Below are positions 6,992-62,770 of a stretch of DNA of 64,000 bases, in pieces. The stretch is from a virus. Within the stretch, counting starts at the first letter, position 1. Each line of letters begins with the position of its first letter. Made by a program: the position numbers and the translations under genes. The notes beneath the pieces were generated by a model. That model made no database searches. It saw only the letters and a program-made list of their open reading frames with translations, and was not told the DNA's origin. Where the stretch lies: the IMG/VR virus record IMGVR_UViG_3300045988_175036, positions 1 to 64,000 of that record. One strand, written 5' to 3'.

Positions 6992-7028
6992 ACAAAAAAC
7001 AGAAAAAGGTGACGCTCTATGCATCACC
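6992..7028 (-). terminator. rho-independent terminator overlapping the stop codon of 7024..7476
   Basis: GGTGACGC (7008-7015) / GCATCACC (7021-7028), with one G.U pair. Followed on the minus strand by TTTTTCTGTTTTTTG. Confidence 0.7.
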
Positions 7029-7476
7029 TAATTGAATGAAGGAAGTCAAAAATCTCTGTCGCGTCATATGCCACCATTCCTGCGTGCGTCCATTCTTCAC
7101 GATTTGGCTTTTCATCATCAAAAAGGAAACCGCCGCGTAACGTGCCAACTTCGCTTTTTGGTGTGCCGTAATGAACAATACAGATTTCATCGAATCGAAC
7201 GCTTTTTAAATGGCGCGAAAGCCATTCCATCTTCGCGCGGCGAACATCTTCAAGAAATTTTTCATCGCGGTCTTTGCTTCCCCATGATACTACACGAATT
7301 TTCCATCCCTTGCGCTGAATCGCGTTCAAACGTCGCGCCAGTCTTGAAAGATTGAGAAGTGCGCGCGCGTCTCTATATGGGCTTGCATCATGCGCGCGGA
7401 TTTTCGGAAGCCAATTTTCAACGCCGTAGAAATCGACAATTGTGCCGTCCATATCCAAACTAATAATTTTTTCCAT
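7024..7476 (-). CDS. HAD-superfamily phosphatase, 5'(3')-deoxyribonucleotidase-like (150 aa)
   Basis: N-terminal DMDGTIVDF (the DxDxT motif I), WGSK, and C-terminal FLFDDEKPN, as in NT5C-type nucleotidases. Confidence 0.55.
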   Translation of the reverse strand: MEKIISLDMDGTIVDFYGVENWLPKIRAHDASPYRDARALLNLSRLARRLNAIQRKGWKIRVVSWGSKDRDEKFLEDVRRAKMEWLSRHLKSVRFDEICIVHYGTPKSEVGTLRGGFLFDDEKPNREEWTHAGMVAYDATEIFDFLHSIR

Positions 7477-10030: not shown

Positions 10031-10035
10031 ATCAA

Positions 10036-10593: not shown

Positions 10594-10629
10594 GTTACAT
10601 AGCTCCTTCCATTTTACGGGACTGGGCGC

Positions 10630-11130: not shown

Positions 11131-11194
11131 CTTTTATTCTCACTTTCCCGCCGTCTTTCCGGCGTGTCGTTGTTTTGTTTTTGTTTACGCTCTT

Positions 11195-11223
11195 ATTATA
11201 GCAATAGCGTCTAAGAATGTCAA
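11195..11223 (-). promoter_or_regulatory. leftward promoter of the divergent control region
   Basis: -35 TTGACA 11218-11223, 17-nt spacer, -10 TATAAT 11195-11200. A CGTCTAA half-site (11208-11214) sits inside the spacer. Confidence 0.7.
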
Positions 11224-11440
11224 CAACTTTTTTCACTAGTTTGTCGCATAACATTCCGTCAATTTCAACAAACTCAAGTCATGTTATATAGTAGGCTCTT
11301 GTGCAGAATGACGAACCGAAGAATGACGTATAACGGGGTGGGTTTTGTCGTTTGACATGACAAAATATAGACCGGGGTACATTTAGTAATTTTACTTTTT
11401 CTATGACGCGTTACATTTCGGGGCCTCGCAACTTTTCTCA

Positions 11441-11480
11441 CTGAAATTAGAAACTGAAATTAGAAACTGAAATTTCTCAC
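11441..11480. repeat. 13-bp tandem repeat CTGAAATTAGAAA x2.5, flanked by TCTCAC
   Basis: Units at 11441-11453 and 11454-11466, partial copy at 11467-11480. AAATTAGAAACT recurs at 11535-11546, downstream of the rightward -10. Confidence 0.8.
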
Positions 11481-11503
11481 TTGACCAAGGTCATCGAGAA
11501 AAT

Positions 11504-11532
11504 TTGACTTCGCCCCAAAATTTCGTTATAAT
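11504..11532 (+). promoter_or_regulatory. rightward promoter at the head of the structural block
   Basis: -35 TTGACT 11504-11509, 17-nt spacer, -10 TATAAT 11527-11532. Confidence 0.65.
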
Positions 11533-11568
11533 CTAAATTAGAAACTATGAACGGAGGGCTTATATGAA

Positions 11569-12867
11569 ATGCCTAAACGAAATCGCTTACAGCTAGACTT
11601 CTCGCTTTCTTCGGCAGAAGAACGTCAAGTCTTTCTCACGAAATATCTTGAAACCTTAGCGTTTACGCCAACTTCATCCGAACTAGAGCTAATGGCCGAC
11701 TATGTTCTATGGGGAGATAAGAATTCTGACGAAACCATTGAACTAGAAACCTTCTGGAAAAAGAAAGAAAAAAAAGTCGAGTCTCTTGACGAATTACAAG
11801 AAAACCCCACTTTCCTCGAAGCACGTCTTGCTTCTCCTTACGTCGCTCCAAAAACTCAAAAAACGCGTCGAGTCTTTTCTCGTGAAGAAGCTCGCTCTTT
11901 CGCTTCTCCCTATGTGCTCGCGCACCTTGAAGACCTTTGGCGCGAAATTGATACGCTCGACCTCGAAACTCGCTTCTATGAAAACTTTATTGGCCGTCAG
12001 GCCAAGCCTCCCCGCAGTCAGCTCCTTGAACGTTTTACTTCGGCGGAAGCCGAAGAAATTCGCGCGCGCGCCCAATCGCTAACCGAATATGCTTACTTGA
12101 AGAAACGAAAACTTCTAGTTGAGAAACGTTCTGAACAATATCCATGGCGTGATACTTACGCGGCCCCTCTAATCCAGCGTCACACCCCCACTATTGTCCA
12201 AGACCCCGTACCTCCTCCGCTCCTAAACGCAGATATTCCCATTCTTCCACTCGGAAACCTCCCAATTCAACTGGCTCCAAAAATTTTCCCTTCCTCCGGT
12301 GAGTTTCCAACTCCCGGCACTCTAACCCCAGACGAAGAAAAGCTTCTCTCCAAAACCATCTGGCGCGAACCCTCAAATGCGCCGAACTCATTTGATTTCC
12401 GTGACCCAGCACACCTCGCTTCTTTTATCTCTCTTTATTCTGAGCTTTTGCCCGACCAAAACTCTGATGAAGGCCTTCAAGCCCTTTTTTCCACTTTTAC
12501 CTATTACCAAAAACTCGCACGACTTTCACCTCTCTACCTCGACATATTGCGCGCGAAGGTCGAACACGAAACCAACACTAAAATTGTAGAGAAGATAGCA
12601 TCAAAATACGGCAAATCCTATGGCGAAAATTATATTTCAACTCTTTATCGCCAAAAGATATTGCCAAAAATAGCCGCAGCGGCGTCCGCGCATTACCAAG
12701 TTACTTCGGAGTTATTTTTCCCCGAAAACTTCAAAACGTGTAAGGATTGCGCGCGCACGCTACTTAGGACTCCAGATTACTTTATGCGCAAAGCGAAATC
12801 TTCAGATGGCTTTTCACCCCGTTGCAAAGCTTGCGAAAAAGCGCTGCGCGAAAGGAGGAAAAATTGA
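11569..12867 (+). CDS. hypothetical protein (432 aa) with a C-terminal CxxC..CxxC zinc ribbon
   Basis: GGAGGG RBS. C-terminus CKDCARTLLRTPDYF...PRCKAC resembles the N-terminal ribbon of 13130..14125. Confidence 0.7.
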   Translation: MPKRNRLQLDFSLSSAEERQVFLTKYLETLAFTPTSSELELMADYVLWGDKNSDETIELETFWKKKEKKVESLDELQENPTFLEARLASPYVAPKTQKTRRVFSREEARSFASPYVLAHLEDLWREIDTLDLETRFYENFIGRQAKPPRSQLLERFTSAEAEEIRARAQSLTEYAYLKKRKLLVEKRSEQYPWRDTYAAPLIQRHTPTIVQDPVPPPLLNADIPILPLGNLPIQLAPKIFPSSGEFPTPGTLTPDEEKLLSKTIWREPSNAPNSFDFRDPAHLASFISLYSELLPDQNSDEGLQALFSTFTYYQKLARLSPLYLDILRAKVEHETNTKIVEKIASKYGKSYGENYISTLYRQKILPKIAAAASAHYQVTSELFFPENFKTCKDCARTLLRTPDYFMRKAKSSDGFSPRCKACEKALRERRKN

Positions 12868-13139
12868 AACTAGATTTAGTAAATGAGTTTGTCGCACGCG
12901 CGGCGTCACTGGAAGTAGAGGAGTTTTTGGGGCTTACCAATCTTCTCAATGTTCCGCTGACTACGGAAGCGCGCGATCACCGTCCTTTTGAGGATGTCTT
13001 TATTGATGCAGTTGTCGCTTTCGGTAAAATGGGGCGGAAGCAAAAACGAGAACTTATAAAAGTGCTGCGCCGCGTAGAAAAAGACAATAAAGAAATGCGC
13101 GCGACCATTGAAGAGGAGGCGGCCTCCAAATGCCAGTAA
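12864..13139 (+). CDS. hypothetical protein (91 aa, TTG start)
   Basis: AAAGGAGG at 12851-12858, then TTG at 12864, which overlaps the upstream stop codon (TTGA). The track's ATG at 12822 lies inside the upstream gene and has no RBS. Confidence 0.5.
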   Translation: MKLDLVNEFVARAASLEVEEFLGLTNLLNVPLTTEARDHRPFEDVFIDAVVAFGKMGRKQKRELIKVLRRVEKDNKEMRATIEEEAASKCQ

Positions 13140-14125
13140 TTCCTCAAATTCCTCGCCCTAAGCGTTCGTTTCTCTCAAAACGGTGCGCGCGATGTCAGGT
13201 AGAACAACCAGAAGAGGATTTCGCTTTCACTCACAGCGAATTCTATCCCGACCACCATCTTCCACTTTGTAATTCATGCATTACTTCGATGTTGCGCGAA
13301 CACGACTTTGATTGGGGTTTTATTGATAAGTTGTGCCAATGGGCCGATATTCCCTTTATTGTAAAAGAATGGGAGAGATTGCGCGAACTCAATTCTCTTG
13401 ATAGTGTATGGGCAGCTTATTCCAAAGTTTTTGCCTCGCAAGATTATGAAGGCCTTGGGTGGGGCTCTTATTTCAAGCAATATCAAGAACTAAAAGCAGT
13501 CGGTCTAGTGGAAGAAGAGATTCCACTTTTGAAGGAGAAGCATTTCGATGAGCTGCGCGCGCGATGGGGCGCAAATTACGATGAAGAGGCTCTCGATTAT
13601 CTTGAGAACCTTTATCAAGGACTTTTGATGTCTCAAAATGTAGTCGGCGCGCTTCAAATTGACCAAGCTCAAAAACTTTGTAAAGTTTCGTATGAGATTG
13701 ATAGTCGCATCCGCGCGGGAGATAAAGATGTCGATAAATTCATGGCAACCTATGACAAGCTAGTCAAAACCGCTGAGTTCACACCTAAAAATATAAAGAA
13801 CGCGCGTGACTTTGATAGCTTTGGTGAATTGGCACTTTGGCTTGAAAAGCGCGGAAATCAAAATAAATTCTACGATGGCGCGACACGTGATGTTATCGAT
13901 GAGACTATCAAAAATATTCAAGCTTGGAACCAGCGTCTCTATGTAAATGAAAGTAGTCTAAGTGAAGAAATTACCGCGCGCCTACAAGCTCTCAAAAATG
14001 TCCAAGAAAGCGAAAACTTCTATGAGACAGAGCAAAAAGATTTCGACGCAGACCTCTACGAAGCAGAAGTTTTCAAAGATGAGGATAGTGAAGACTTTGA
14101 AACAGAAGGAGAGATGGGCATATGA
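13130..14125 (+). CDS. hypothetical protein (331 aa) with an N-terminal zinc ribbon; small-terminase candidate by position only
   Basis: CARC..x25..CNSC. Sits immediately upstream of, and overlapping, the large terminase. Acidic C-terminus. Confidence 0.35.
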   Translation: MPVIPQIPRPKRSFLSKRCARCQVEQPEEDFAFTHSEFYPDHHLPLCNSCITSMLREHDFDWGFIDKLCQWADIPFIVKEWERLRELNSLDSVWAAYSKVFASQDYEGLGWGSYFKQYQELKAVGLVEEEIPLLKEKHFDELRARWGANYDEEALDYLENLYQGLLMSQNVVGALQIDQAQKLCKVSYEIDSRIRAGDKDVDKFMATYDKLVKTAEFTPKNIKNARDFDSFGELALWLEKRGNQNKFYDGATRDVIDETIKNIQAWNQRLYVNESSLSEEITARLQALKNVQESENFYETEQKDFDADLYEAEVFKDEDSEDFETEGEMGI

Positions 14126-50048: not shown

Positions 50049-50930
50049 TTACTTTAGGTTAGTGGAGCCAAAACCTCCATTACCTCTTTCTGTGTCATCA
50101 AGATTTTCAACTTGGAAAAGAACTGCCTTAGGGACTTCCATTAGAACAAGTTGCGCGAACTTTTCGCCTTTTCCAATTGTCATATCACTACCTCTAAGAA
50201 TTGAGGTAATGATAGGGCGGCCATTATCATCAAAATCATAAGTGATATCCTTGATAGGAGGCTCAATATTTTCAATAATTACTTGAAGCTCCCCTCTAAA
50301 TCCAGCATCAACCGTCCCAATTGAATTAGCAATTCTCATTTTTGTCTTGAGGGCGCGACCACTCTTTGGACGAATTTGAATTTCATAACCATTTGGAACA
50401 GCCACCTTGATGCCAGTTGGAATAAGCTTTGTTTCGCCGGGATGAATCACATAGTCATCCACTGCATAAACATCCATTCCACTATCATCGGGATGCGCAT
50501 ACTCAGGCATTTTTGCGTCTGGATGGCACTTTACAAAAGGAATTTGGATATAACGTTTTGCGATACCTTCTGTTTCACTAATAGCCGTATTGATGCCGCG
50601 CAGTAGCTTTTTGAGAAAATCTCGCTTTGGTGCAGTCAGGTCAGTAATTACATCAATTTCATTTACCAATTGGAGAAATTCGTCCTGGACGCTTTCTGCT
50701 GTAGAGCCAGTGGCATTGATAGACTGCGCAAGCATTAGGCGCGCGTTCGTAGTATTGAGACTACGAAGGAAACTATCCAGAATGCCAGGGGACACTAATT
50801 CAAATTGAGCATCATCCATTGATAACAGAACAGCAATAGCATCAATAGAATTTCCATCAAGACTATTTAGTTGAGAAAGCGCGTCGCGCACTTCTTCAAT
50901 AACTTTTTTAGAATTTGGTTCTACGTTCAT
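50049..50930 (-). CDS. dut: dUTPase with an N-terminal extension of about 130 aa and an internal insertion (293 aa)
   Basis: All five trimeric dUTPase motifs are present: DSGMDVYA, RPKSGR, GTVDAGFRGE, KFAQLV and RGNGGFGSTN. About 25 extra residues lie between motifs 3 and 4. Confidence 0.85.
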   Translation of the reverse strand: MNVEPNSKKVIEEVRDALSQLNSLDGNSIDAIAVLLSMDDAQFELVSPGILDSFLRSLNTTNARLMLAQSINATGSTAESVQDEFLQLVNEIDVITDLTAPKRDFLKKLLRGINTAISETEGIAKRYIQIPFVKCHPDAKMPEYAHPDDSGMDVYAVDDYVIHPGETKLIPTGIKVAVPNGYEIQIRPKSGRALKTKMRIANSIGTVDAGFRGELQVIIENIEPPIKDITYDFDDNGRPIITSILRGSDMTIGKGEKFAQLVLMEVPKAVLFQVENLDDTERGNGGFGSTNLK

Positions 50931-51151
50931 TCGGCCTCTTCACCCCACAGAGAGCAATATGTCATTTGAATTTTGCAGACCCAAATTTCATCCACAACAA
51001 TTCCCTTTTGCTTCTTCGTTTTATAAGTGTAACCGGCTGCTGTAATCTGAAAGCCTTCTTCACGAGCCTTTTCCCGGTATGCTTCAATAGTTTCTTTTGC
51101 TTCGTTTTCGTTTAGGGTAATTAGTTCTTCTGTCTTTTTATAGAGTGTCAT
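50927..51151 (-). CDS. hypothetical protein (74 aa)
   Basis: GGAGG RBS before the ATG at 51151 (MTLYKKTEEL..). The track's longer start lies inside the upstream gene. Confidence 0.5.
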   Translation of the reverse strand: MTLYKKTEELITLNENEAKETIEAYREKAREEGFQITAAGYTYKTKKQKGIVVDEIWVCKIQMTYCSLWGEEAE

Positions 51152-51986
51152 TATTTTTTGCCTCCACTTGATAGCTTGTATTTTCATTACAGTTGCACGT
51201 AGTATACCACGGATTACTAGGAGTGCCAATTTCATAAGGTTTTGGCGTATAAGGAACAGTTGCAGGAGAAGTTACAATTAGCGGACTATTAGTAATCTTG
51301 TCCTCAATTTTTGTTAGTCGTTCCATAACTTGGTCAAGCGTAATTGCGCTACTGGTTTTCTTTTCTTCCTTTTCATAGCAAATCAAATCTTTAGCATAAG
51401 GAAGTGTCTCAATCCACTTACAAAATTCTCTCCATTCCGGCAGCTTATGGCTACGACGCTGACGCCAGATATTCTTCAAACAACGGTAATTTGTGGTAAG
51501 CCGCGCTGTAAGTTCAAAGCCAGGAGGAATATTATACAAAATTTCAAGATAAAGTTCTGTTTTCTGTTTCGAGAGACTTTGCTTTGCTTCCTCGTTTTGT
51601 CCTTTTAGCGCAGAAAGTCGGTTGTATTCATTGATTTTTCCTTGGACAATATCAATGATGCGTGAATCAACATATCTATTGCATTGTTCTTTTAGGGAAA
51701 ATTTTGTGGCACAGTGCATAGTGGATTGTGAACTAACAAAAAATTTGAAGATATACCTCTCCATTTCAATCCACGCTTTATTAGAAAAGCGCAAGTCAAA
51801 ACTCACGAGAATACCTGTAAGGAATTGGTCGTGCGCGCCAACCCAATCAGCGGCGTGAGATAGGTTCTTCGCTCGTTTTAGCGCGGCTTCTACTGTCTCT
51901 TCCCAATCGGTTGTAGTTCTCAAAGGATACCCTGAAGCATGAAGACTTTCTTCTAAATCATAGACCTTTACATTTTCAACTCTCAT
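51138..51986 (-). CDS. ThyX-fold (flavin-dependent thymidylate synthase-like) protein lacking the RHR signature (282 aa)
   Basis: GAHDQFLTGILVSFDLRFSNKAWIEMERYIFKFFVSSQSTMH aligns by eye to the ThyX block GHE.PFEH..F.F.....S.....Q..RHR..S...SGRY, with ERY in place of RHR. TTNYRCLKNIWRQRRSHKLPEWRE aligns to the ThyX block ..N.RSL.NF..LR....AQWEI.. An extra C-terminal tail of about 90 aa is present. Confidence 0.5.
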   Translation of the reverse strand: MRVENVKVYDLEESLHASGYPLRTTTDWEETVEAALKRAKNLSHAADWVGAHDQFLTGILVSFDLRFSNKAWIEMERYIFKFFVSSQSTMHCATKFSLKEQCNRYVDSRIIDIVQGKINEYNRLSALKGQNEEAKQSLSKQKTELYLEILYNIPPGFELTARLTTNYRCLKNIWRQRRSHKLPEWREFCKWIETLPYAKDLICYEKEEKKTSSAITLDQVMERLTKIEDKITNSPLIVTSPATVPYTPKPYEIGTPSNPWYTTCNCNENTSYQVEAKNNDTL

Positions 51987-52506
51987 TTAGCAACTCCTCA
52001 AAAATTAAATCTTTTGGCAAAAAATTATTACATATGTATATACTAGCAAACGAAACTCCTTTTACTATCTTCGTATAATCTTCATCTTGATAAAAATTTA
52101 TTCTTTTATCAAAGATAAGGGCTTGTTTATTTTGTAAATAGGGAAAACGTTTTTGTCCTTGTAAGGTAGGCAGCGGAAAAAGCATTGCATAAGGTTTTTG
52201 GAGTTCTTCTAGCCTTTTTAAGATATCGTCTTTACAAGAGAATGGAGGATTAGAAATGATAATATCATATTTATCAGGAGAATAGTAAAAAAAGTTTTTC
52301 CCCAAGTCAATATGGGAAAATATTACTTTATTCCCATTCTGTAAAAAAATTTGAACATATTTACTATTCTCCTTATCAAAAGGACACCAAATGATATCCT
52401 CTTTTGAGACATATTTTAATAAGGGGGTAATAGCGTTAGGTGGGGTATAGTATTCATCAGAAGCTTTATCCGTTTTTGCTGTTAAATAACCTTTATTTTG
52501 TCCCAT
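51976..52506 (-). CDS. small putative N6-adenine DNA methyltransferase (176 aa)
   Basis: N-terminal DEYYTPP and catalytic ISNPPFS (the NPPF motif IV). Confidence 0.55.
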   Translation of the reverse strand: MGQNKGYLTAKTDKASDEYYTPPNAITPLLKYVSKEDIIWCPFDKENSKYVQIFLQNGNKVIFSHIDLGKNFFYYSPDKYDIIISNPPFSCKDDILKRLEELQKPYAMLFPLPTLQGQKRFPYLQNKQALIFDKRINFYQDEDYTKIVKGVSFASIYICNNFLPKDLIFEELLNES

Positions 52507-52922
52507 TATACCTCCACGATTTTATAGTCGCATCCATCAATAGAACGGATATAATTTAAAACATCTTTATATTCTGGTTTTGTAAACCAGTTATTGAGAA
52601 GATAGGTATATGTAACTTTCTTAGCTTTTAAAGCCCTTCCAATTTTTTGATATTGGAGAAGTTTGAAAGCACAAGTTTGTAATTTTTCATCAACTGAGCC
52701 GGCCACTTGTTGATATTTCTTCTCATAAATTTTTAGTTCTCCATTTACAAAATAAGCCTCATCTGGCAATAGCTTCTTAGAAATTAGTTTTCTCCAATCA
52801 ATCTTTTCTTGAGACAAATACTTATATAGATTATGCTTAGATAAATCTATGCCTTCTTTTTGAGCTTGACAGATTTCTTCCCAAACTAAACCACTAGAAG
52901 TATCTCTAATCATATTCTTCAT
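52506..52922 (-). CDS. hypothetical protein (138 aa)
   Basis: The ATG overlaps the upstream stop codon (TGATG). No motif recognised. Confidence 0.55.
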   Translation of the reverse strand: MKNMIRDTSSGLVWEEICQAQKEGIDLSKHNLYKYLSQEKIDWRKLISKKLLPDEAYFVNGELKIYEKKYQQVAGSVDEKLQTCAFKLLQYQKIGRALKAKKVTYTYLLNNWFTKPEYKDVLNYIRSIDGCDYKIVEV

Positions 52923-53338
52923 CAAATAATTTTCTCCTTTACATAATCTCCACTTTCATTCAAATAATAAACTGTCTTTATTCCTAGGTCTCGTATCAGT
53001 CGCGCGCACGCCGCGCAGGGTCTGCTACAGCCTCTTTCTCCATTTTTGTGTTCTCTATAAACATAGATATTGACTTTATCCCATTCAATATCTTTCCCAA
53101 TAAGAGGAGAAAGTGCAGCGACCTCTGCGTGTTCTCGCGCGATTGAATTCTCGTAGTCATCAAAATTTCGATAAATATTATAACGGTGCTGAAGAGGACG
53201 AGTCTTCTGACTATTACAAGCAGAAGAAAGAATCCTGTTGCCACTGACAACAACCGCGCCGACCTTTGTCTGCTTGAAATCAGATAAATAACTGACTTCA
53301 CGCGCGATATTGAAAAAGCGTTCTTCTTTGTGCGTCAT
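52922..53338 (-). CDS. deoxycytidylate (dCMP) deaminase
   Basis: Zinc-binding motifs HAEVAAL and CSRPCAACARLI. AAAGGGGA RBS and an ATG at 53338. Confidence 0.85.
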   Translation of the reverse strand: MTHKEERFFNIAREVSYLSDFKQTKVGAVVVSGNRILSSACNSQKTRPLQHRYNIYRNFDDYENSIAREHAEVAALSPLIGKDIEWDKVNIYVYREHKNGERGCSRPCAACARLIRDLGIKTVYYLNESGDYVKEKII

Positions 53339-53369
53339 CAAACTAGTCCCCTTTACTCTTTATAAAAAT

Positions 53370-53611: not shown

Positions 53612-55840
53612 TTAGTTACAGTGAGAGTAACCGCATTCCTTACAGATATCGCAGCCGCCGCTATGCTCCAAAACCGCGTCGCACTCTGGACAACGCTCTC
53701 CGAACTTTTGTGATTTCTTTTTCTTTGGTTCCTCTAAATATCCCAATTCTTCTTGAACTTCTTTCCACATATCCATCAGTGCATTGCCTATTGCCATTGG
53801 GCAACACGCGCCCTTAGATGTATCATGCTTTGTGGCTGTCCTAATAGCATAACTAGGACAAGCACCAGTTGAATTGAGCTGGTCTTGAATATCATTTATG
53901 CTAACTCCAGCTCTACAGGCAAGAGAAACCATTCGAGATAATCCAACCATATAGTTGGAACATCCCCCCAAACTACCTTTTGTAAAGAACACTTCAACTA
54001 AATCACCATAAACTGGTTCAAAGAACCCAAGAACATGAGTTGAGCCGCAACCATTGATTATTTTTCTTTTCTTTCCAATCAAGTCGTCCGCACACTTCAT
54101 AATTTCTCCACGTTTTAATTCTTTATGAGAAATTTCTTCTTCTTTTTTATTTTCTGTAGTCAAAATGCCAAGGCGCTTACAACCATCTCTGAACATGGTA
54201 ATACCTTTACACCCAGACGACCAAGCAAGTAGATACATATGTGCAATATCATCTTTAGTTGCAGAATTTGGCATATTTACTGTAGAACTAATTGCTGTAT
54301 CAACATGTTTTTGCATTACAGCTTGTGTTAGCACTCTACTCTGCCAAGAGATATCAGCTGAACCGACAAAATAATCTGGTAGCTCTTTTGTATTATTTAT
54401 CTCCATATATTCGCGTGCTGCTTTACAATAAACATCGTAGTAGGCATCTTCTCCATCTGTCATGCCTACTGTTCTTCTTGTATATTTTAGCGCAAATTCT
54501 GGCTCACAACCACCACTTTCTCCTAGTAGAGTAGCTAATGAACCAGTTGGAGCAATTGAAACTAAACTACAATTTCTTAAGCCATATTCTTTTAGTTTAG
54601 TTATTTCATCAGGACTAAAATGAAATTTTATGATATCACTATCAAAAATTTCTTCTTTGTATTTTGGATACGGACCGAACTCTTTTGCCAATTCGTTGCT
54701 TGCAAGGACCGCGCGTCTAAAGATAAGAGAAAAGACATCATCAGTAAATTCAATAGCCTCTGGCGAGCCATATCGGAAGCCGAGCTTCATAAGGGCCGTT
54801 GCATAGCCAAAGATACCTAGGCCAATATTTCTATAGTTATAAGACATATCTCTTTGCTGTTGTAAAGGGTGTCTGTTATAATTTTCATCAATAAGTTTAT
54901 CAAGAGTTTTAATACCAACATCAATTGCCGATAGTAAGTCCGCTGTATTGAGGTGAGCTTGTGGTGTATAAGGGTTTACAATAAATTCAGAAAGATTCAG
55001 GGAAGATAGACAGCAAGCGCCATGTTTGGGGAGCGGTTGCTCGCCACAAGGATTACAAGTCTCAATCTCATAATCTTCATCGAATTGCATCAAATTATAA
55101 TTTCTAAATTTGTTGGTAAAGAGGCAAGCGGGGTCAGCCCAATCATAACAATTATCAACTAGCATTTTGAAAATTTCGATTGGGGTAACATCATATTCTA
55201 TTTCATGCCCGGAGTAGTTTCGCTTTTCGTGTAGTACTACAACTTCTCCAGTGTCATAATATTTCTCAACAGCTCGCATAAATTCGTCATCAAGTTCAAG
55301 AGACAAATTGGCTTTTTCAATTTCCCCTTCTTTTGACTTTATTTTTATAAAAGTCTCTGCTTCTTTATGCCGTGCGTCAATAGAAAGCATTAGCGCACCC
55401 TTGCGCGCACCTCCTTGTGAAGTTCCCGCTGTGACTTCATTGAAAATTTTCATAAAAGGAACAATTCCATCAGAATAGTATTCAGTTTTTATTGGAGTTC
55501 CCTTTGGGCGTAATTTTGTAAGAGAAATTCCTTGGCCGCCTTGTGCTTTGAAAGTAATGCCAATGTCTTTTGCGGCATCCATAATGTCGTAGTAATCATC
55601 TTCAATATACCCTCTTGAATAACAATTGAATAAACTGCCAGTATTATTAAGACCTCTATTTGCTAAAGTGCGCCCGCCCATCAAGAACTTTTTCTCGATA
55701 ATTAGTTTTCGTAATTCATTATCTCCTGCACTTACTCTATCTAGCCATTCTTCAAAACTTTCATTATTGTGTCGATATTTACGTTGCCAGATGTCTTGCG
55801 CGAGTTGATTATTTTCTCCAAGCCAATCCTTTACGGTCAT
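53612..55840 (-). CDS. nrdJ: class II (adenosylcobalamin-dependent) ribonucleotide reductase, NrdJ-like (742 aa)
   Basis: Active-site TCNPCGEQPLP, SIAPTGS, and a C-terminal CPEC...CDICKEC zinc module. GGAGG RBS before the ATG at 55840. Confidence 0.8.
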   Translation of the reverse strand: MTVKDWLGENNQLAQDIWQRKYRHNNESFEEWLDRVSAGDNELRKLIIEKKFLMGGRTLANRGLNNTGSLFNCYSRGYIEDDYYDIMDAAKDIGITFKAQGGQGISLTKLRPKGTPIKTEYYSDGIVPFMKIFNEVTAGTSQGGARKGALMLSIDARHKEAETFIKIKSKEGEIEKANLSLELDDEFMRAVEKYYDTGEVVVLHEKRNYSGHEIEYDVTPIEIFKMLVDNCYDWADPACLFTNKFRNYNLMQFDEDYEIETCNPCGEQPLPKHGACCLSSLNLSEFIVNPYTPQAHLNTADLLSAIDVGIKTLDKLIDENYNRHPLQQQRDMSYNYRNIGLGIFGYATALMKLGFRYGSPEAIEFTDDVFSLIFRRAVLASNELAKEFGPYPKYKEEIFDSDIIKFHFSPDEITKLKEYGLRNCSLVSIAPTGSLATLLGESGGCEPEFALKYTRRTVGMTDGEDAYYDVYCKAAREYMEINNTKELPDYFVGSADISWQSRVLTQAVMQKHVDTAISSTVNMPNSATKDDIAHMYLLAWSSGCKGITMFRDGCKRLGILTTENKKEEEISHKELKRGEIMKCADDLIGKKRKIINGCGSTHVLGFFEPVYGDLVEVFFTKGSLGGCSNYMVGLSRMVSLACRAGVSINDIQDQLNSTGACPSYAIRTATKHDTSKGACCPMAIGNALMDMWKEVQEELGYLEEPKKKKSQKFGERCPECDAVLEHSGGCDICKECGYSHCN

Positions 55841-56031
55841 TCTTTTTCCTCCGTGTAACAATATTCACAATAGCCATTTATAAAATTGTGCTGACATTGT
55901 GCTTGAAGTTTTTTATTTTCTTCTAATAATTTAGCAACAGTATTATTTAGGGTGAATTTATTTGGTGTTACTAGCTGTTCAATAATACTATTATTTTCAT
56001 CTATTTTTTGTTTTATTTCTAAATTAGTCAT
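55837..56031 (-). CDS. hypothetical protein (64 aa)
   Basis: Translationally coupled (ATGA). C-terminal C..x10..CEYC. Confidence 0.5.
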   Translation of the reverse strand: MTNLEIKQKIDENNSIIEQLVTPNKFTLNNTVAKLLEENKKLQAQCQHNFINGYCEYCYTEEKE

Positions 56032-57160
56032 TTATAAACATCTCCTTTTCATAATGGACAGAGATTGTCTCGTAGAACATCTTGAAAAGTTCATAATTCT
56101 TTTCACGAATATATATAAAGCTTTTCCGATTTTCCTCAAGGGAAGTCTTTGGAGAGAGAGATTTCTCTGTAAAAATTGGACCAGAATTATACTGAGATTT
56201 TGCTTTTAGGTAATAATATAATGTGGTCAGTTTTCTATCTTGGCTTTTTTGAAAAAATTCATTCCAAAGTCGAAAAAGGTTTTCTAACTCTTGTGAAAAT
56301 GGAGATTCTCTACCAAGAGTAAGTAGAAAATTTATCTTATGAGTAGATAAGTATAAACACTGTCTGTATACAATAGGTAGTGTTTCTAGGATTTGCTCAT
56401 CACAAGATGTTGTGGAAAACGGATTATATATAATTTTCCGCGCAGTTCTAGCAGGAATATCATCACATAGTTCTTTTACCATTTTATCAGGCATCAGGTC
56501 TTCATATTGAACTTGGAAAATACCTGAAAGAGGTGGAAGACTAAGCCATTCATAGAGTTCTTCTTTTGTGCTTACAGTTGGCGGAAATTTCATCCCAATT
56601 GGCAACACGTGAATTTTTTCAGGATTATTTACACCAAAACGAGAATTAGATAACTCTTTCAGGAAACTAACGGCTCCTTCAACTTGTCCAAGGTTATAAT
56701 CATGAAGAATAATACCTGATGTTTTTGGAAAAATCTGTGCTTTGAGTTGCTTTTCCACAAAGCTATCAATACCATGGCCTTCACGCGAAAGACGTCCATG
56801 TCCTGCGCGTAAAATCCTCTTAAAAGTAGCCTTATCTACTCCGAAGTAACTTTCATATTTTTCATACGGAGAAAAATCAGGGACAATACTTTCAATTTCT
56901 TTTGAAAAAGGAACATAATTTTCTAATGATACCGCGCGACCACCATATCCTACATTAGGTAAAAAAAGTTCTTTTGGATACAATCTATCCTCGTAATCTT
57001 TTCTTACAAAAAAAGAATTATAGCGTTCTGGCTCCAAAGTAGGAGCCAAAAGCGTTATATCTCTTTTCTTCTTGTAGTAGGCAAGAAGCTTCGCACACTC
57101 AAGATTTGGCATTACATTCCAATAATGAAAAAAATCATAATCATGAATTCCAACTATCAT
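56024..57160 (-). CDS. hypothetical protein (378 aa)
   Basis: Long ORF translationally coupled between the polymerase and RNR genes. No motif recognised by eye. Confidence 0.6.
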   Translation of the reverse strand: MIVGIHDYDFFHYWNVMPNLECAKLLAYYKKKRDITLLAPTLEPERYNSFFVRKDYEDRLYPKELFLPNVGYGGRAVSLENYVPFSKEIESIVPDFSPYEKYESYFGVDKATFKRILRAGHGRLSREGHGIDSFVEKQLKAQIFPKTSGIILHDYNLGQVEGAVSFLKELSNSRFGVNNPEKIHVLPIGMKFPPTVSTKEELYEWLSLPPLSGIFQVQYEDLMPDKMVKELCDDIPARTARKIIYNPFSTTSCDEQILETLPIVYRQCLYLSTHKINFLLTLGRESPFSQELENLFRLWNEFFQKSQDRKLTTLYYYLKAKSQYNSGPIFTEKSLSPKTSLEENRKSFIYIREKNYELFKMFYETISVHYEKEMFIND

Positions 57161-60100
57161 TCATCTAACTCCAACCTTGGGCGCATTTTTATTTTACCAT
57201 CTGGATAAACTTCTTCAATCAATTCACAAAGATGGTAGGGGGTTGCTTTATATTTTTTCGCGCGGAAGCTATCACCATCACGAATTCCACACACTACAAT
57301 TTTGTTTCCACGTGCAAAAGTAGATTTTTCTTTGACGTGTTTCTTGCCATCCACACCTTTTTCAGAAATTTGGCGATCATAGATATTGAAGACTTCACCA
57401 AAAATCTTTACTGTAACAACCCCATCTGGCGTCAAAAGTGTCACTAATTTCTTCATCTTATCACGGTCAAGAACGGTTCCATAGATACGATGAATTTTGA
57501 AGATTGGAACACGTTTACCCTTGATTTCAAAAACTCGCTCAATCTCTGGTTCTTCTGCTAAGTCAAAGAAGTTCGAGAAGCCATAATATGTGTTATCGAC
57601 ATGTGCGAGTTCGTGTTCATGGAAATAACAAGAAACGCTGTCCATTTCCCATTTACTTATATTTCCAAGGCAATACTTATTCCACACATCTTCTGTCAAT
57701 CGACTATTTACAGAAGAAAGAAGTTTTTGATTATTCTCTTTGACGTAGGGACGAATTCTATCCATTACTTCATCATAGATTTTTTTCCACGTGATTTGCT
57801 TTATGCCAAAGCCACTTTCCGCGCGAGCGTCCTCAACCAGCTTGTCGATTGAGAAGTTCTTATCAAAGAAAACCATCGCAATGTTATCTAAAAGGAATAA
57901 ATCATCTACTTTGGATGTCTTTAGATATTTGTTGAAGTTGAAGACCCGGCGAACAAAATCGTATTCGCTTGGAATAAGTCCAAAATCAATCAACATTTTC
58001 ATATTTTGGAGAGTAATACGTTTCTTTGCGTCGCTAATAAGGTTGATATATTCGTGCATCACTTGTTCGCGTTGGCCGAAACTGTCGAAAGCGCCGCACT
58101 TTATGAGATTTACCATTTGAGGCTTGTTGATTTTTACTTTTGAGAGGAAGTCTGGGATTGAAGTGTAAGGACGATTTTCGATTATTTGTTTTACAATATC
58201 TTGACCGATTTTTGTAATACCATTCATACCAAAACGAATAATTGAATTTTCAACATCTGGAGAAAATGTAAAAGTGGATTTATTTATATCTGGTGGAGCA
58301 ACTGTAATTCCAGCTGCTTGCATTTTTCCAAGCGCCGCGGCAATTTTACCGTAATTACTTACTTTTACTTTTTTCTTCTTTTTAGTTGTTAAGACTTTAT
58401 TGACTTCAGTATCATCTTCTTCATCTTCTTCATCGTCATCATCGAATTCTTCTATGCAATCAGTATATTTTTCTATTGTGAACGTGTCCTCTTCTTCATT
58501 TCCATCGTTATCATCACCCTGTTGTTCATTGCCACCACTGTCACTAATTAAGCAAGCACAATTCCAAAAAATAATTGGAAAGCGATAAGCCAAATTCATT
58601 TCTTGCAAAGCCACAAGAGAATATGAAAGGGTGTGCGCACGACAAAATGAGTAACCACGCTGAACACGAAGTAAAATGTCCCAGACATAATGAACAAGTT
58701 TCATATCACATTTTTTTTCTTGAGCATTTTCAAAATAAGCCTTTTCACATTCGTCAAAAAGCTTACCTTGTTTTTTTGCAATTGCCTTACGGCATTTGTC
58801 TGCAAAGGTCAGACTATTACCACCAAGTTGTTCTTCTTGTAGAAGCTGCATCATTCCTTCTTGACTTTCACAAATACCATCGGTAATAGCGTTGTGCGAC
58901 ATTAGCCAATCAATATTGACCTGACTTAGGCCATACGTGCACATCTCTCGTTCCCATTCTATGATATTGGAACGATATCTGGCCCACATATCAAGAGGTT
59001 GTTCTGCACCCTTTTCAGGAGCCATGAGACGAATAACTGAATTCAAAACCGCTAATTCACTGACACTTTTTGGATGCGTTAGCGCGATACCATTGATACC
59101 ACTTTGTTTTTCCATTTGAAAAAGACTGGTAATTTTATGCTCCCAAACCATTTGCCACATTTTTGGGGCGGTGCGCTCAAGATTATAAATTCCAATGATT
59201 TTCTCATAGGTTTCTCGTAATGTTGCTTCTGGTTTTATATAGCCATATTCTACTAATAAATCTAACTCATTATGAATTTTATCAAGGGCTTCAATAGAGA
59301 GCATGTCAATTTTAATGAGTGATACATCCTCGCAATCATGTAACTCAAAAGCAGTAATAATCGTACCATCTGGCGCGCGCATTAGAGCCGTAGAATTAGT
59401 GAAAGGTTCATCAACAAAAATTACTCCGCCAGCATGTATTCCAACTCCACAAATCAGTCCTTCAATTTTAGAAGCTACTGCCCAAACTTCTGGATAATTT
59501 TCCGTCATTTCAAAAACAAATTGTTTGATTGGCTTGAAGTCCTTCTCTTCGTCACCATTCATGCATTGTGATAAAGACCGTAACTGGCCGCGGTCGGATG
59601 GAATTAGTCCAGCTAGATAAGAAGCAATATCAACCTCAATATTGAGGCCGCGACAGGCAGTTAGAATAGCAGACTTGGATTTTTCGGTTTTGAAGGTTGC
59701 CACATTAGACACTCTGTCTTCGCCATAAAAGTCTCGAAACTTTTGAAGGACTTGTGCACGCTTACTTCCTTCGATATCTGTATCACAGTCAAGAACCGAA
59801 GCTCGATCAGGGTTCAAAAAGCGCCAATGGAATACTTTCGTCTCTTCAAGAAGCGGGTTTATTTGAGTAATTCCAAGTACGTATAGTAGAATAAATCCTG
59901 CACCAGAACCCCGCCCTGGCCCAACAAGAGAACCAGCCTCCCAGCACAAATCAATATTTTTTTGAAGATTTAGATAATATGCAGACCAATGAGCATTATT
60001 TTTGATAGAAGAACGCCAAGTATCATCGAGACACACATTTATTTCTTTATAAGCCTCATCCGTTTGAAGCCCGCGTCGAGATTTTATACCATCAATAACT

Positions 60101-61155
60101 GCCCAAACAAGATGTCTATCACCAATATAATTAGAATTATAAAAAGTTTCAAGAAGTGGGATTTTATTTTTATAGAAAAGATATTCATCTTTATTTTGTG
60201 GATACTTGTACCACTCTAATTCTGGAATTCTTAGAGGTTTTAGTAGGCTATAATCTTCACAGGTTTCTCTAATCTTAAGGATATTTCTATATGCTTTTTC
60301 TAATTGTTCCCTTGAAAAATATCCAAAATAACTTTCAAGTTCTTCCGTATTCATCATATACGTAGACACGTAAAAGTCATCAACTTCACGGTCGCCATTT
60401 TGAGCATTTAGATATGCTTTATGGATAGTGCGGTCTTCTTTCTTTAGGTAATGACTATCAGTTGTAATAATATAGGGGATGTCTAATTCTTCTGAAAGTT
60501 CAAAGAGTCGTTGATTTACATAGACTTGATCTTTATTATGGCTTGGTTGCATTTCAAAGAAAAAATTACCATGTCCAAATAAGTTATCTAATTGACTAAT
60601 CCAATTATAAATTTTTGGTAACAACTCTGGTTCAGTCTTCGCACGAAGGAGTTGAGTAGGAAGACAGCCACCCAAACACGCTGATGAACCAATAATATGT
60701 CCTGGGTTAGCACCAATTATCTCAAATAAATCGCTATAATAAGTCGGAACACGTCTCATGCCTCGCGCCGTATAGCTACGAAGCCAAGCACGCGTAGAAA
60801 GTTCACGGATTTGTTGGTGACCAATTGCATCTTTTGCAAGAAGAATAAAGTGATAATATTTGTCTTGACCTGCTTTATAATTAGAAGCATTGAGGCCATT
60901 GCGGCAAAGATAAATCTCATTTCCTAGAATAAGCTTAAAATCAGGATTCTTTTCTTTTACCTTTCGATAATATTTCTCAGCGCGAACTGCGCCAGAGACG
61001 GTTTCATGGTCAGTAATGGCTACTACTTGATGTCCTAGTTCAATTGCATAATCAATCAAATCTTCAGTCTTAATGATACAGTCACGAAGACGTTCATTTG
61101 ACCAGTCAAGATGATTATGTAGAGAACCAGGGTACTTTAGTTTTCGTTCGTCCAT
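57157..61155 (-). CDS. dnaE: DNA polymerase III alpha subunit-like replicative polymerase (DnaE-type, 1332 aa)
   Basis: N-terminal PHP domain (SLHNHLDWS, VAITDHE). Size and layout fit a C-family polymerase. An internal acidic insertion plus Lys run is present. Confidence 0.85.
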   Translation of the reverse strand: MDERKLKYPGSLHNHLDWSNERLRDCIIKTEDLIDYAIELGHQVVAITDHETVSGAVRAEKYYRKVKEKNPDFKLILGNEIYLCRNGLNASNYKAGQDKYYHFILLAKDAIGHQQIRELSTRAWLRSYTARGMRRVPTYYSDLFEIIGANPGHIIGSSACLGGCLPTQLLRAKTEPELLPKIYNWISQLDNLFGHGNFFFEMQPSHNKDQVYVNQRLFELSEELDIPYIITTDSHYLKKEDRTIHKAYLNAQNGDREVDDFYVSTYMMNTEELESYFGYFSREQLEKAYRNILKIRETCEDYSLLKPLRIPELEWYKYPQNKDEYLFYKNKIPLLETFYNSNYIGDRHLVWAVIDGIKSRRGLQTDEAYKEINVCLDDTWRSSIKNNAHWSAYYLNLQKNIDLCWEAGSLVGPGRGSGAGFILLYVLGITQINPLLEETKVFHWRFLNPDRASVLDCDTDIEGSKRAQVLQKFRDFYGEDRVSNVATFKTEKSKSAILTACRGLNIEVDIASYLAGLIPSDRGQLRSLSQCMNGDEEKDFKPIKQFVFEMTENYPEVWAVASKIEGLICGVGIHAGGVIFVDEPFTNSTALMRAPDGTIITAFELHDCEDVSLIKIDMLSIEALDKIHNELDLLVEYGYIKPEATLRETYEKIIGIYNLERTAPKMWQMVWEHKITSLFQMEKQSGINGIALTHPKSVSELAVLNSVIRLMAPEKGAEQPLDMWARYRSNIIEWEREMCTYGLSQVNIDWLMSHNAITDGICESQEGMMQLLQEEQLGGNSLTFADKCRKAIAKKQGKLFDECEKAYFENAQEKKCDMKLVHYVWDILLRVQRGYSFCRAHTLSYSLVALQEMNLAYRFPIIFWNCACLISDSGGNEQQGDDNDGNEEEDTFTIEKYTDCIEEFDDDDEEDEEDDTEVNKVLTTKKKKKVKVSNYGKIAAALGKMQAAGITVAPPDINKSTFTFSPDVENSIIRFGMNGITKIGQDIVKQIIENRPYTSIPDFLSKVKINKPQMVNLIKCGAFDSFGQREQVMHEYINLISDAKKRITLQNMKMLIDFGLIPSEYDFVRRVFNFNKYLKTSKVDDLFLLDNIAMVFFDKNFSIDKLVEDARAESGFGIKQITWKKIYDEVMDRIRPYVKENNQKLLSSVNSRLTEDVWNKYCLGNISKWEMDSVSCYFHEHELAHVDNTYYGFSNFFDLAEEPEIERVFEIKGKRVPIFKIHRIYGTVLDRDKMKKLVTLLTPDGVVTVKIFGEVFNIYDRQISEKGVDGKKHVKEKSTFARGNKIVVCGIRDGDSFRAKKYKATPYHLCELIEEVYPDGKIKMRPRLELDE

Positions 61156-61169: not shown

Positions 61170-61463
61170 TTATTCGCCAATTATATGGAAAGTTTTATCT
61201 GGAAATACCTTCTTTATTCTAACCCTATCATCATGTTCGGCCACGTCAAAAAAGCTCCATCCCTTATGTAAGCTCATTATTCCTACAATTCTCCATGGTT
61301 CTTCATCAATTAAATAATAAAGTTCGTCTATTTGAATTTTTTTATAGATATTTTCGTCTTCAAAAAGAATATAATTTTCAATTTCTTCTAAAGATTGAAG
61401 AGTATTAGGGAGTGAAGCAACTAATTCTTTTGTAAAATTTTCAATTTTATAAATTTTTATCAT
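61170..61463 (-). CDS. hypothetical protein (97 aa)
   Basis: GGGAGA RBS; start overlaps the end of the upstream methyltransferase gene. Confidence 0.5.
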   Translation of the reverse strand: MIKIYKIENFTKELVASLPNTLQSLEEIENYILFEDENIYKKIQIDELYYLIDEEPWRIVGIMSLHKGWSFFDVAEHDDRVRIKKVFPDKTFHIIGE

Positions 61464-62253
61464 TTTCTTTCTCCCATTGTTCTTTTAGCCATTTGCGGAG
61501 TCTCCATGCAGGCAAATTTGGCGAAGCAACACATTGAAGTAAATTTTTATAATTACATTCTTTTAGCTTTTTTTCTAACCACTCTTTTATATTATCGTCA
61601 CATCTAAAAACTATTTCATTAGGACAGGTTTCACCTTCATCCAATAGCTTTATTGTCCCCCAAGCGGAAACACGGAAGTCCCAAGGATAATTTAATATAT
61701 CATCTGGGTGCTTATATTTACCAGTCCGAAAGATATGCCTGCATTCTAAAATTCCTGAAATGTCATAATTTTGTTTATGTCCATTCTTACAATAATGATA
61801 TATATTCAAGCAACAATGAATTTTTCTTCCGCTATAAGGTAAAATTCCTAAGTCTTCACTATATAATAGTTCAGTGTCTTTCATTGTTCTATTTTGATTT
61901 AATTGACTAATTGGCTGAATGAGTGAAATATATGGCGAATGAGTTAAAGAAGCCTTTATAAATTGAACAGAAAGTTTATTAGCTCTACCAAAAGGGGGGT
62001 TGCCAATCACAAGAGATTTTTCTTCATAAGGGAGTTTTATATCTCTATAATCAGCTTGAATAATATTTGGGCCTTCAGGCAAAATATCATAAGCTAATGT
62101 GTTATTTGGCAAATAAGCCAGATATGCCCCAGCTCCTGCTGATGGCTCAATAATTCTGTCCCAATCTGTTCCAAGAATTTCAAAAGTTTTTTCAACGCAG
62201 TACTTGGCTATACTATTTTCAGTATAATATTTATCATTTGCAATTTTTCCCAT
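61447..62253 (-). CDS. N6-adenine DNA methyltransferase (268 aa)
   Basis: DKYYT, motif I IIEPSAGAGAY and motif IV IGNPPFG. Confidence 0.75.
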   Translation of the reverse strand: MGKIANDKYYTENSIAKYCVEKTFEILGTDWDRIIEPSAGAGAYLAYLPNNTLAYDILPEGPNIIQADYRDIKLPYEEKSLVIGNPPFGRANKLSVQFIKASLTHSPYISLIQPISQLNQNRTMKDTELLYSEDLGILPYSGRKIHCCLNIYHYCKNGHKQNYDISGILECRHIFRTGKYKHPDDILNYPWDFRVSAWGTIKLLDEGETCPNEIVFRCDDNIKEWLEKKLKECNYKNLLQCVASPNLPAWRLRKWLKEQWEKENDKNL

Positions 62254-62254
62254 A

Positions 62255-62770
62255 TCATACCTCTAAGAATTTATTTAGCTCGGAAAAAGTCATAAAACGG
62301 TATTTAGAAAAAGATTGTTTATTTTTCTTGGTTGAGCCAGAAATTGTATAACAGCTTTCTTCTATCCTAGAATGTTGTTTACTTTTAGAAAATAATTGTT
62401 CATTTATAATATCTCTACTAGGAATAAAAAATATCTCTTCTCCGCCATTTTCAGTATCATAATTAACGAAAAGAAAATATTCACACTCATATGGATGACA
62501 TTGATTATAAGTAATTGTTTTCAACGGCAGCCGAGCAGATTTGACCTCTACTCTACCATATTTTTCAGAAAACATATCATGACCAGCGGAGTTATCTTTT
62601 CTCAGAGCTGGAACTTGGCTAAGAATATACGGCTCGCTCCATTCTTCACCAAAGGCTTTATTGGATAAACTTTTTAAGTTTCCATAAGGATTTAATTCTG
62701 AAATTCTTTTTTCACATTCTGCAATAATTTGTCTCAATTCTGAGACAGAAGTAATTTTTGATAAATCCAT
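62255..62770 (-). CDS. PD-(D/E)xK nuclease-like protein (171 aa)
   Basis: GHDMFSEKYGRVEVKSAR fits D-x10-E-x-K. Sits directly upstream of the methyltransferase with a 1-nt gap. Confidence 0.45.
   Translation of the reverse strand: MDLSKITSVSELRQIIAECEKRISELNPYGNLKSLSNKAFGEEWSEPYILSQVPALRKDNSAGHDMFSEKYGRVEVKSARLPLKTITYNQCHPYECEYFLFVNYDTENGGEEIFFIPSRDIINEQLFSKSKQHSRIEESCYTISGSTKKNKQSFSKYRFMTFSELNKFLEV

Follow-up and report, generated by a model that had tools for sequence, protein, structure and literature searches.

ThyX, the flavin-dependent thymidylate synthase, has been studied in depth and is an antimicrobial target; its catalytic motif is, to our knowledge, regarded as universal. The present analysis concerns a stretch of 64,000 nucleotides of viral DNA (IMG/VR virus record IMGVR_UViG_3300045988_175036, positions 1 to 64,000; hereafter, the window), part of a genome of ~117 kb, and in it a gene for a protein of 282 amino acids (aa) whose core is predicted to have the ThyX fold, but which lacks the ThyX motif. 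The protein belongs to a large phage family and may be an active enzyme of the ThyX superfamily in the place of a thymidylate synthase; this interpretation is tentative. A first-pass annotation, made from the sequence alone, had described the gene as encoding a ThyX-fold protein without the RHR signature, in a gene set that could mark thymine replacement of the SPO1 type; the coordinates, minus strand and length given there were confirmed from the list of open reading frames (ORFs).

Among described systems, the closest is ThyX itself (Thy1, PF02511; T. maritima TM0449, PDB 1o26; H. pylori 3ah5), with which the family shares the fold and the order of secondary-structure elements. Genuine ThyX binds FAD, assembles as a tetramer whose active sites lie between subunits, and makes dTMP (thymidylate) from dUMP by means of CH2-THF and NAD(P)H. 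Its R78 serves to stabilise the reduced flavin at N1/C2=O, and flavin or folate is the stacking partner of H53 (PMC11940539). Deoxyuridine monophosphate (dUMP) is contacted by R78, R80, S88 and R90 (PMC3498832) and is activated by R174, which deprotonates N3; mutants S88A, R90A and Y91A are severely impaired (PMC8316439). PolB, a ThyX-like UMP C5-methylase of polyoxin biosynthesis, moved the ThyX fold off the conversion of dUMP to thymidylate (dTMP), so the fold tolerates a change of substrate (PMC5003785). It is described as a ThyX homolog with activity of the thymidylate-synthase type, which sets it apart from the far more divergent, phage-borne family considered here. Phage enzymes of the ThyA fold, namely, the dUMP and dCMP hydroxymethylases of SPO1 and T4 and the 5-hydroxy-dCMP synthases of RB69 and DLP3 (PMC13326640), share with the family the concept of a thymidylate-synthase relative with a changed active site. 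Their substrates are mononucleotides supplied by dCMP deaminase or dUTPase, and their products pass to a dNMP kinase. However, the ThyA fold is unrelated to the ThyX fold of the family, and these systems bring dedicated kinases, glycosyltransferases and other modification genes, none of which is a conserved neighbour of the family. A literature survey on ThyX-like phage proteins and on ThyX homologs with new chemistry returned only canonical ThyX, ThyA-fold cases and PolB; the family was not described there.

Fold and active site

The protein is a clear member of phrog_6721 (PHROGs v4; E=1.8e-52, 179 bits; aa 2-203 aligned to positions 9-216 of the 218 in the profile), annotated as 'unknown function'; to this entry the present work adds the connection with the ThyX fold and an analysis of individual residues. 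The Pfam model Thy1 matched it at E=0.011 and 16 bits, and because this is below the gathering threshold of 24.8, the protein is not a member of Pfam Thy1 (PF02511). Thy1 was the sole recurrent weak Pfam hit in the family, found below threshold in 6 of 13 diverse members (best E 0.003). A phmmer comparison of the single protein with the PDB sequences gave chance-level hits and no ThyX. Alignment of the family by hhalign to nine genuine ThyX (the T. maritima sequence, identical to PDB 1kq4/1o26, and eight annotated phage ThyX) had a probability of 82.5% and E=1e-5 over 161-205 columns.

An AlphaFold2 model of the monomer, built from a diverse alignment of 64 sequences, has a predicted local distance difference test score (pLDDT) of 96-99 over aa 1-200, with ~97 in the core. 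Foldseek comparison with the PDB gave 155 hits at E<=0.001; all 50 hits listed were ThyX, with a probability of 1.0, target-normalised template modelling scores of 0.55-0.62 and identity of 13-17%. In the viral BFVD library, two uncharacterised proteins were followed by annotated ThyX. The order of secondary-structure elements matches that of a ThyX model from the same pipeline. The core of the protein is thus predicted to have the ThyX fold, as the first-pass annotation had assumed, and the family appears to be related to ThyX, only remotely.

Residues of the two flanks of the active site, which every method aligned alike, were counted in 64 family sequences. The family retains G50-x-H52 (G50 in 61, His in 59), corresponding to G-H53 of ThyX; R77 (62), corresponding to R78; the helix Y146-L-E-I-L, corresponding to Y133-L-E-L-I; and P154 (all 64), N166 (60), R177 (63), H180 (63) and E184 (Glu or Asp in 61), corresponding to P151, N163, R174, H178 and E182, respectively. 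The equivalent of ThyX R165, R168, is Arg in 25 and Leu in 22 sequences. A segment of ~10 residues with E144 and R147 of ThyX is deleted from the family in the hhalign alignment; in the AlphaFold models, the DSSP string of the family shows nothing equivalent to ThyX helix 143-149, on which E144 and R147, a ligand of the dUMP phosphate, are located. Judging by the alignments, the residues kept appear to be those facing flavin and pyrimidine in ThyX, and the residues lost those clamping the nucleotide and assisting methylene transfer; by these features, the protein is not a canonical ThyX.

The RHR signature, reported as missing by the first-pass annotation, is indeed absent from all 270 family members. 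The claim that ERY stands in its place was correct as to this absence, but the first Arg is kept, R77 being aligned with ThyX R78 in every alignment. The proposed correspondence of STMH to the ThyX sequence SGRY was not confirmed: three sequence methods gave three registers. In the register of the first-pass annotation, also produced by HMMER for the best-scoring member, S88, M90 and H91 are placed opposite S88, R90 and Y91 of ThyX. The register of the profile methods (hhalign and hmmalign) includes a 13-residue family insertion, with H91-[R/K/C]92 opposite H79-R80 and C102-N-x-Y105 (CNRY in the window protein, overlooked in the first-pass annotation) opposite S88-G-R90-Y91, and scores better before gap costs. 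In a third register, obtained by hhalign with a different or merged ThyX profile at a probability of only 25-31%, S85 and S88 are placed opposite S88 and Y91. Forced alignment of 240 members to the ThyX hidden Markov model (HMM) with hmmalign was fragmentary, with mixed registers. The canonical motif RHR-x7-S-x-RY was restored by none of the three registers. The central motif region was treated as unalignable to ThyX by the sequence methods used.

The CNRY region is itself variable, with C102 in 42 and Y105 in 40 of the 64 sequences and Lys (18), Glu (18) or Arg (4) among the residues at position 104. The window protein has Ile at position 79 (His in 33/64), Cys at position 92 (Arg or Lys in 44/64) and Arg at position 104.

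Genuine phage ThyX vary in the flanks of RHR, namely, DHT in Bacillus phage Glittering, KHQ in Yersinia phage PYps4T and KHE in Roseobacter phage CRP-1; H79, S88, R90, Y91 and R174 are invariant in the same controls. Since the flanking arginines vary, RHR alone is a poor diagnostic of ThyX.

For comparison of the loop, a 96% identical ThyX of the T. maritima type was modelled with the same AlphaFold pipeline, and the DSSP strings were compared. In the ThyX model, a 15-residue coil (78-92) separates helix 70-77 from strand 93-98; this coil carries the whole motif, has pLDDT <50 at residues 86-89 and is the flexible active-site loop. In the family model, helix 69-75, five residues and strand 81-86 follow one another, so that the loop between helix 4 and strand 4 comprises 5 aa in the family versus 15 aa in ThyX. 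Topology identifies strand 81-86 with strand 4 of ThyX, preceded by a shortened motif loop; the motif SSQSxMH, located after the strand, would then be without a counterpart in ThyX. What can be said safely is that the loop carrying the ThyX motif is rebuilt in the family.

SSQSxMH is the most conserved motif of the family. In the 64 sequences, Y78 and S88 are each present in 63, S86 in 61, and M90 and H91 each in 59. The near-invariant signature consists of H52, D64, R77-Y78, S85-S86-x-S88-x-M90-H91, Y121, P154-x-G156, T165-N166-Y167, Q176-R177-x-x-H180, W185, C189 and P196; of these, SSQSxMH, NY, W185 and C189 are invariant motifs of the family only and distinguish it from ThyX.

Distribution and genomic context of the family

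The family comprises 7,110 clusters at 90% identity and 2,314 at 50%. None of the 120 clusters listed, of the 7,110, carries a precomputed Pfam domain, and the names from public sources (NCBI, UniRef and JGI) are all 'hypothetical protein', including hundreds of C. difficile records. No NCBIfam hit was found for four members, and no PADLOC-DB model matched the window protein or the homologs of phiCD211 and ProddE at E<=0.01. Among cultured phages, homologs with 26-53% identity are encoded by C. perfringens phage XP41-N3, five large Clostridioides phages of the phiCD211 type, Fusobacterium phages Fnu1, FNU2, FNU3 and phiKSUM, and the T7-like Desulfovibrio phage ProddE. The hosts of the family phages span three bacterial phyla, and those of the cultured phages are all strict anaerobes. 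Some of the phages that carry the family are temperate: integrases and repressors are encoded by ProddE and phiCD211, and an XRE-like regulator by XP41-N3 (38 kb).

Several members differ in architecture. A homing-endonuclease-like module HNH_3 (+AP2) of ~200-260 aa is inserted in-frame in seven members (P0128, P0187, P0212, P0223, P0224, P0234 and P0241; the insert of P0241 is similar, with no significant Pfam hit). The insertion site is after ~aa 30, between the N-terminal strand/helix and the GxGHD motif, and no intein is obvious. Homing-endonuclease insertions are typical of conserved phage genes of replication and nucleotide metabolism. In P0123 (456 aa), the domain is duplicated in tandem, SSQSxMH being missing in copy one and kept in copy two; this suggests a heterodimer-like arrangement, consistent with active sites between subunits. 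P0143 contains two N-terminal helix-turn-helix (HTH) domains.

The first-pass annotation had also noted an extra tail of ~90 aa. A C-terminal extension is present, but its length is ~77 aa (206-282). It contains one predicted helix (217-233), followed by a low-confidence sequence rich in Pro, Thr and Asn, with pLDDT of 40-64 beyond aa 240. The tail is missing in 62 of the 120 closest clusters, and in 50 tailed relatives median identity is 27% in the tail versus 84% in the core; in P0008 the core is 99% and the tail 47% identical. By these comparisons, the tail is an accessory, fast-evolving, lineage-specific appendage, probably outside the catalytic unit.

Genomic context was analysed in 38 non-redundant neighbourhoods from 80 IMG/VR loci with flanks of +-10 kb; the neighbours were clustered de novo, and recurrent clusters were annotated. 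All recurrent neighbours are located on the same strand. They include a putative primase-like protein (15 of 38; no Pfam match), the alpha subunit of DNA polymerase III (Pol III alpha; 14-15), DnaB (11), AAA_24 (11), gyrase A and B (11 and 8, assigned by reading the sequences), ligases (7-8), NrdD and NrdG-like proteins (12-13 and 9-10), any dUTPase (18), NT5C (6, about two genes downstream), dCMP deaminase (5) and class II ribonucleotide reductase (RNR; 5). Immediately downstream of the family gene, a guanylate/dNMP-kinase-like gene was found in 5 and a winged-HTH gene in 11 neighbourhoods. The 176-aa methyltransferase of the window has a counterpart in 1/38. In XP41-N3, the family gene is located between Erf and SSB, with no genes of nucleotide metabolism nearby; in ProddE, DNA polymerase and exonuclease flank it, and MazG, PNK and NrdD/G are nearby. 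On the basis of these counts and of the two phages, the conserved association is with replication and deoxynucleotide supply, not with the particular gene set of the first-pass annotation.

Searches with the ThyX HMM and a verified E. coli ThyA probe detected no ThyA or ThyX in the window, in the 80 family loci (+-10 kb) or in four phage loci. None was found at E<=0.1 in four whole genomes (phiCD211, ES-S-0173-01, MT835485 and ProddE), with all 8 of 8 positive controls recovered. Conversely, no family member occurs in 56 IMG/VR ThyX loci; these control loci serve the question of co-occurrence only, the neighbour probes being derived from the lineage of the family itself. Canonical ThyX occupies a common niche with the family in phages, beside dUTPase, dCMP/dCTP deaminase and RNR; it is encoded beside dUTPase in phiYS40 and beside dCTP deaminase in HCTV-9. 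Context and mutual exclusion fit a family that occupies the thymidylate-synthase slot.

The locus in the window and in its sister genome

The features of the locus are listed in Table 1. The minus-strand block includes, in the order of transcription, genes of Pol III alpha, a 378-aa protein of unknown function, RNR, dCMP deaminase, orf139 with an NPPF methyltransferase, and the ThyX-fold protein, followed by the 74-aa gene, dUTPase and a RuvC-like resolvase. All neighbours named by the first-pass annotation, that is, dCMP deaminase, extended dUTPase, RNR with Ribonuc_red_lgC and TSCPD domains, two NPPF methyltransferases and the NT5C/HAD deoxynucleotidase, were recovered. Proteins 98-100% identical to the 282-aa protein are encoded on viral contigs of ~112-117 kb; a megablast search of the 7-kb region against the phage collection gave no match, and no deposited phage in it is close at the DNA level.

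Table 1. Position of the ThyX-fold gene, its motifs and its neighbours in the window
Feature	Position	Strand	Basis or remark
ThyX-fold protein gene, complete coding sequence, 282 aa	51138..51986	-	ORF list; phrog_6721
Core ThyX-fold domain (predicted), aa 1-205	51372..51986	-	AlphaFold2 pLDDT ~96-99; Foldseek; hhalign
Lineage-specific C-terminal tail, aa 206-282	51138..51371	-	AlphaFold2 pLDDT; identity among relatives
G50-A-H52-D53 motif	51828..51839	-	H52 = ThyX H53 in every alignment method
E76-R77-Y78...S85-S86-Q-S88-T-M90-H91-C92, rebuilt region in place of ThyX-motif loop	51711..51761	-	
C102-N-R104-Y105, alternative candidate for ThyX S88-G-R90-Y91	51672..51683	-	Register of profile methods
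T164-T-N166-Y167-R168...Q176-R177-x-x-H180-x-x-x-E184-W185	51432..51497	-	C-terminal half of ThyX active site (ThyX N163, R165, R174, H178, E182)
74-aa gene	50927..51151	-	Sequence read directly
dUTPase, ~135-aa N-terminal extension (makes dUMP)	50049..50930	-	Pfam dUTPase E=6e-21 at aa 139-222; phrog_135 E=8e-58
Insertion: 176-aa NPPF methyltransferase + orf139	51976..52925	-	phrog_799 DNA methyltransferase; missing in sister genome L013
dCMP deaminase (makes dUMP)	52922..53341	-	Pfam dCMP_cyt_deam_1 E=8e-12; phrog_174
RNR, class II-type (barrel + TSCPD)	53612..55861	-	Pfam Ribonuc_red_lgC 2e-92, TSCPD 3e-11
Pol III alpha	57157-61155	-	
Second Type II methyltransferase, NPPF motif	61447-62253	-	
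NT5C/HAD-type 5'-deoxynucleotidase, early block, far from ThyX-fold gene	7024..7476	-	Pfam NT5C 27.2 bits > 24.8 cut-off

The 74-aa gene has no Pfam hit and no family match. Its ATG overlaps the final codons of the ThyX-fold gene (ATGACACTCTATAA) and is located 9 nt after GGAGG, which indicates translational coupling of the two genes. The program-listed ORF of 102 aa (50927-51235) over-extends this gene. Ahead of the second Type II methyltransferase lies a 171-aa ORF (62255-62770, minus strand) that matches DUF6998 weakly; the methyltransferase could be an orphan with a remnant or unusual partner.

The window has 96-98% DNA identity to a part of an IMG/VR viral contig of 116,948 bp (sister genome L013). 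The 176-aa NPPF methyltransferase and orf139 are absent there, and dCMP deaminase directly abuts the ThyX-fold gene. The pair (~51990-52920) looks like a small mobile or variable cassette; its insertion is strain-specific and outside the conserved unit. The class of RNR is also exchanged between the two genomes: at the position of the class II-type RNR of the window, L013 (6560-9321) encodes a class III enzyme, consisting of NrdD (ATP-cone, NRDD and glycyl radical; 754 aa) and NrdG (166 aa), and no similarity of the window RNR to this NrdD is detectable.

Two further regions of the window are of unusual composition. A tract of ~1 kb (400-1400) is 82% purine on the plus strand (A 566, G 258 of 1001) and contains several degenerate A/G-rich tandem repeats with periods of 14-31; the 307-aa minus-strand ORF located in it (448-1371), rich in Phe, Leu and Ser, is probably spurious. 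The tract might serve as an origin, in packaging or in regulation. The stretch 10001-14000 has a G+C content of 0.45-0.46 versus 0.33-0.40 elsewhere in the window, no Pfam match was found for its ORFs 10630-11130, 11569-12867 and 13130-14125, and it may be a module of different origin.

Possible function and significance

The interpretation preferred here, which is a cautious one, is that the protein is an active enzyme of deoxypyrimidine metabolism, belonging to a distinct branch of the ThyX superfamily that is carried by phages and located in the thymidylate-synthase slot. According to this scheme, the neighbouring dCMP deaminase and dUTPase would supply dUMP, and the ThyX-fold enzyme would modify C5 of its uracil ring, with dTMP as the most probable product, thereby filling the thymidylate-synthase slot of the deoxynucleotide-supply module of the phage. 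Flavin binding, substrate and product are predicted, as is assembly into an oligomer of the ThyX kind, whose active sites would lie between subunits. The route to dTMP is considered the most likely specific function because of the niche, the exclusion pattern and the presence of the family in temperate phages, whose DNA is expected to be canonical. Of the two readings offered by the first-pass annotation, a divergent or an inactive thymidylate synthase, the former is retained as this most likely function.

Several findings weigh against the dTMP route. H79, S88, R90 and Y91, invariant in genuine ThyX, including phage ThyX, have no consistent placement in the family, and whichever register is chosen, R80, R90 and R147 turn out to be replaced, variable or deleted. 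The hmmsearch of PDB sequences with the family profile of 64 sequences yielded chance-level hits and no ThyX chain at E<=10. The exclusion of ThyA and ThyX at the level of whole genomes concerns four genomes only, three of them independent, plus the flanks of +-10 kb. A separate, long-standing signature would fit another reaction or substrate at least as well as the synthesis of dTMP.

A changed reaction or substrate is possible and nearly as likely as the dTMP route. A neofunctionalised ThyX-fold enzyme would bind flavin and a pyrimidine, and would catalyse another reaction or act on another substrate (a non-methyl C5 group, dCMP, a nucleoside or a polynucleotide base); phage DNA with a non-canonical base, the main idea of the first-pass annotation, may or may not be the consequence. 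The rebuilt loop with its own invariant SSQSxMH, Met and His where one register puts R90 and Y91 of ThyX, and the deletion of the E144/R147 helix are consistent with such a change, as is the dNMP-kinase-like gene immediately downstream in five neighbourhoods. Precedents are phage ThyA homologs repurposed to flavin-dependent 5-hydroxy-dCMP synthases (PMC13326640) and the ThyX-like PolB, which methylates UMP (PMC5003785). The dCMP deaminase, dUTPase and NT5C-like nucleotidase of the window, as assigned by sequence family, resemble parts of the 5-hydroxymethyluracil (hmU) pathway (PMC8989533). However, the SPO1-type pathway needs a ThyA-fold dUMP hydroxymethylase, and no ThyA-like sequence was detected either in the window or at the family loci; nor was a dNMP kinase (guanylate/dNMP-kinase-like ORF) found with the probe used in the 64 kb of the window, out of a genome of ~117 kb. 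The hmU-like set is not conserved around the family, with dCMP deaminase in 5, NT5C in 6, the kinase in 5, any dUTPase in 18 and the adjacent methyltransferase in 1 of 38 neighbourhoods, this methyltransferase being absent from the sister genome. No glycosyltransferase, aGPT-Pplase or other hypermodification gene was found among the recurrent neighbours. The strictly anaerobic known hosts exclude O2-dependent flavin hydroxylation, and the family occurs in temperate phages, one of them a 38-kb phage without nucleotide-metabolism genes nearby. Wholesale base replacement is less expected in temperate phages. Since the gene set is not conserved around the family and the family is found in temperate phages, the proposed thymine-replacement pathway is not supported. 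That the family represents a new class of flavin-dependent pyrimidine-modifying enzymes on the ThyX scaffold, with a product other than dTMP (another C5 substituent, or modified dCMP, nucleoside or DNA), is rather doubtful.

It is also unlikely that the protein is non-catalytic, that is, a nucleotide- or flavin-binding regulator, sensor or inhibitor in a replication/recombination module, modulating, for example, host thymidylate metabolism or host defence. The loss of the canonical catalytic loop, the position of the gene between Erf and SSB in small temperate phages rather than among nucleotide genes, the two N-terminal HTH domains of P0143 and the frequent downstream winged-HTH gene (11/38) would agree with such a role. 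Nevertheless, the residues kept are exactly those that touch flavin and activate uracil in ThyX, no PADLOC defence model was matched, and the many near-invariant polar residues, several of them at positions of the ThyX pocket, are more typical of an active site. A decaying thymidylate synthase, a functionless remnant, is strongly disfavoured. The missing ThyX motif and the sub-threshold Thy1 score are what decay would produce, but thousands of clusters share the near-invariant signature, the core is conserved at 84% among relatives with tails at 27%, and the gene is intact, probably translationally coupled and kept in many phage lineages across three bacterial phyla. The strong family-wide conservation of a different polar signature thus points to a working site rather than to decay.

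The family is best filed as a new, very divergent variant in the ThyX fold superfamily; a modified base does not follow from it. All databases consulted (Pfam, NCBIfam, PHROGs, PADLOC, PDB, and NCBI, UniRef and JGI names) leave it as 'hypothetical', and annotation pipelines should not transfer 'thymidylate synthase' from fold similarity alone. It is widespread among the phages and prophages of anaerobic gut bacteria, with hundreds of C. difficile genomes among them, is abundant both in phages of the human gut and in large C. difficile and Fusobacterium phages under study for therapy, and is directly testable in the cultured phages phiCD211, Fnu1, XP41-N3 and ProddE. If the present interpretation is true, a second, very large family exists on the ThyX scaffold, in which the flavin- and uracil-facing half of the pocket is kept and the nucleotide-clamping half is rebuilt. 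It would show either thymidylate synthesis without the ThyX motif or other uses of the ThyX scaffold, and, if the product is other than dTMP, the presence of the family would mark a modification of nucleotides or DNA that is yet to be described.

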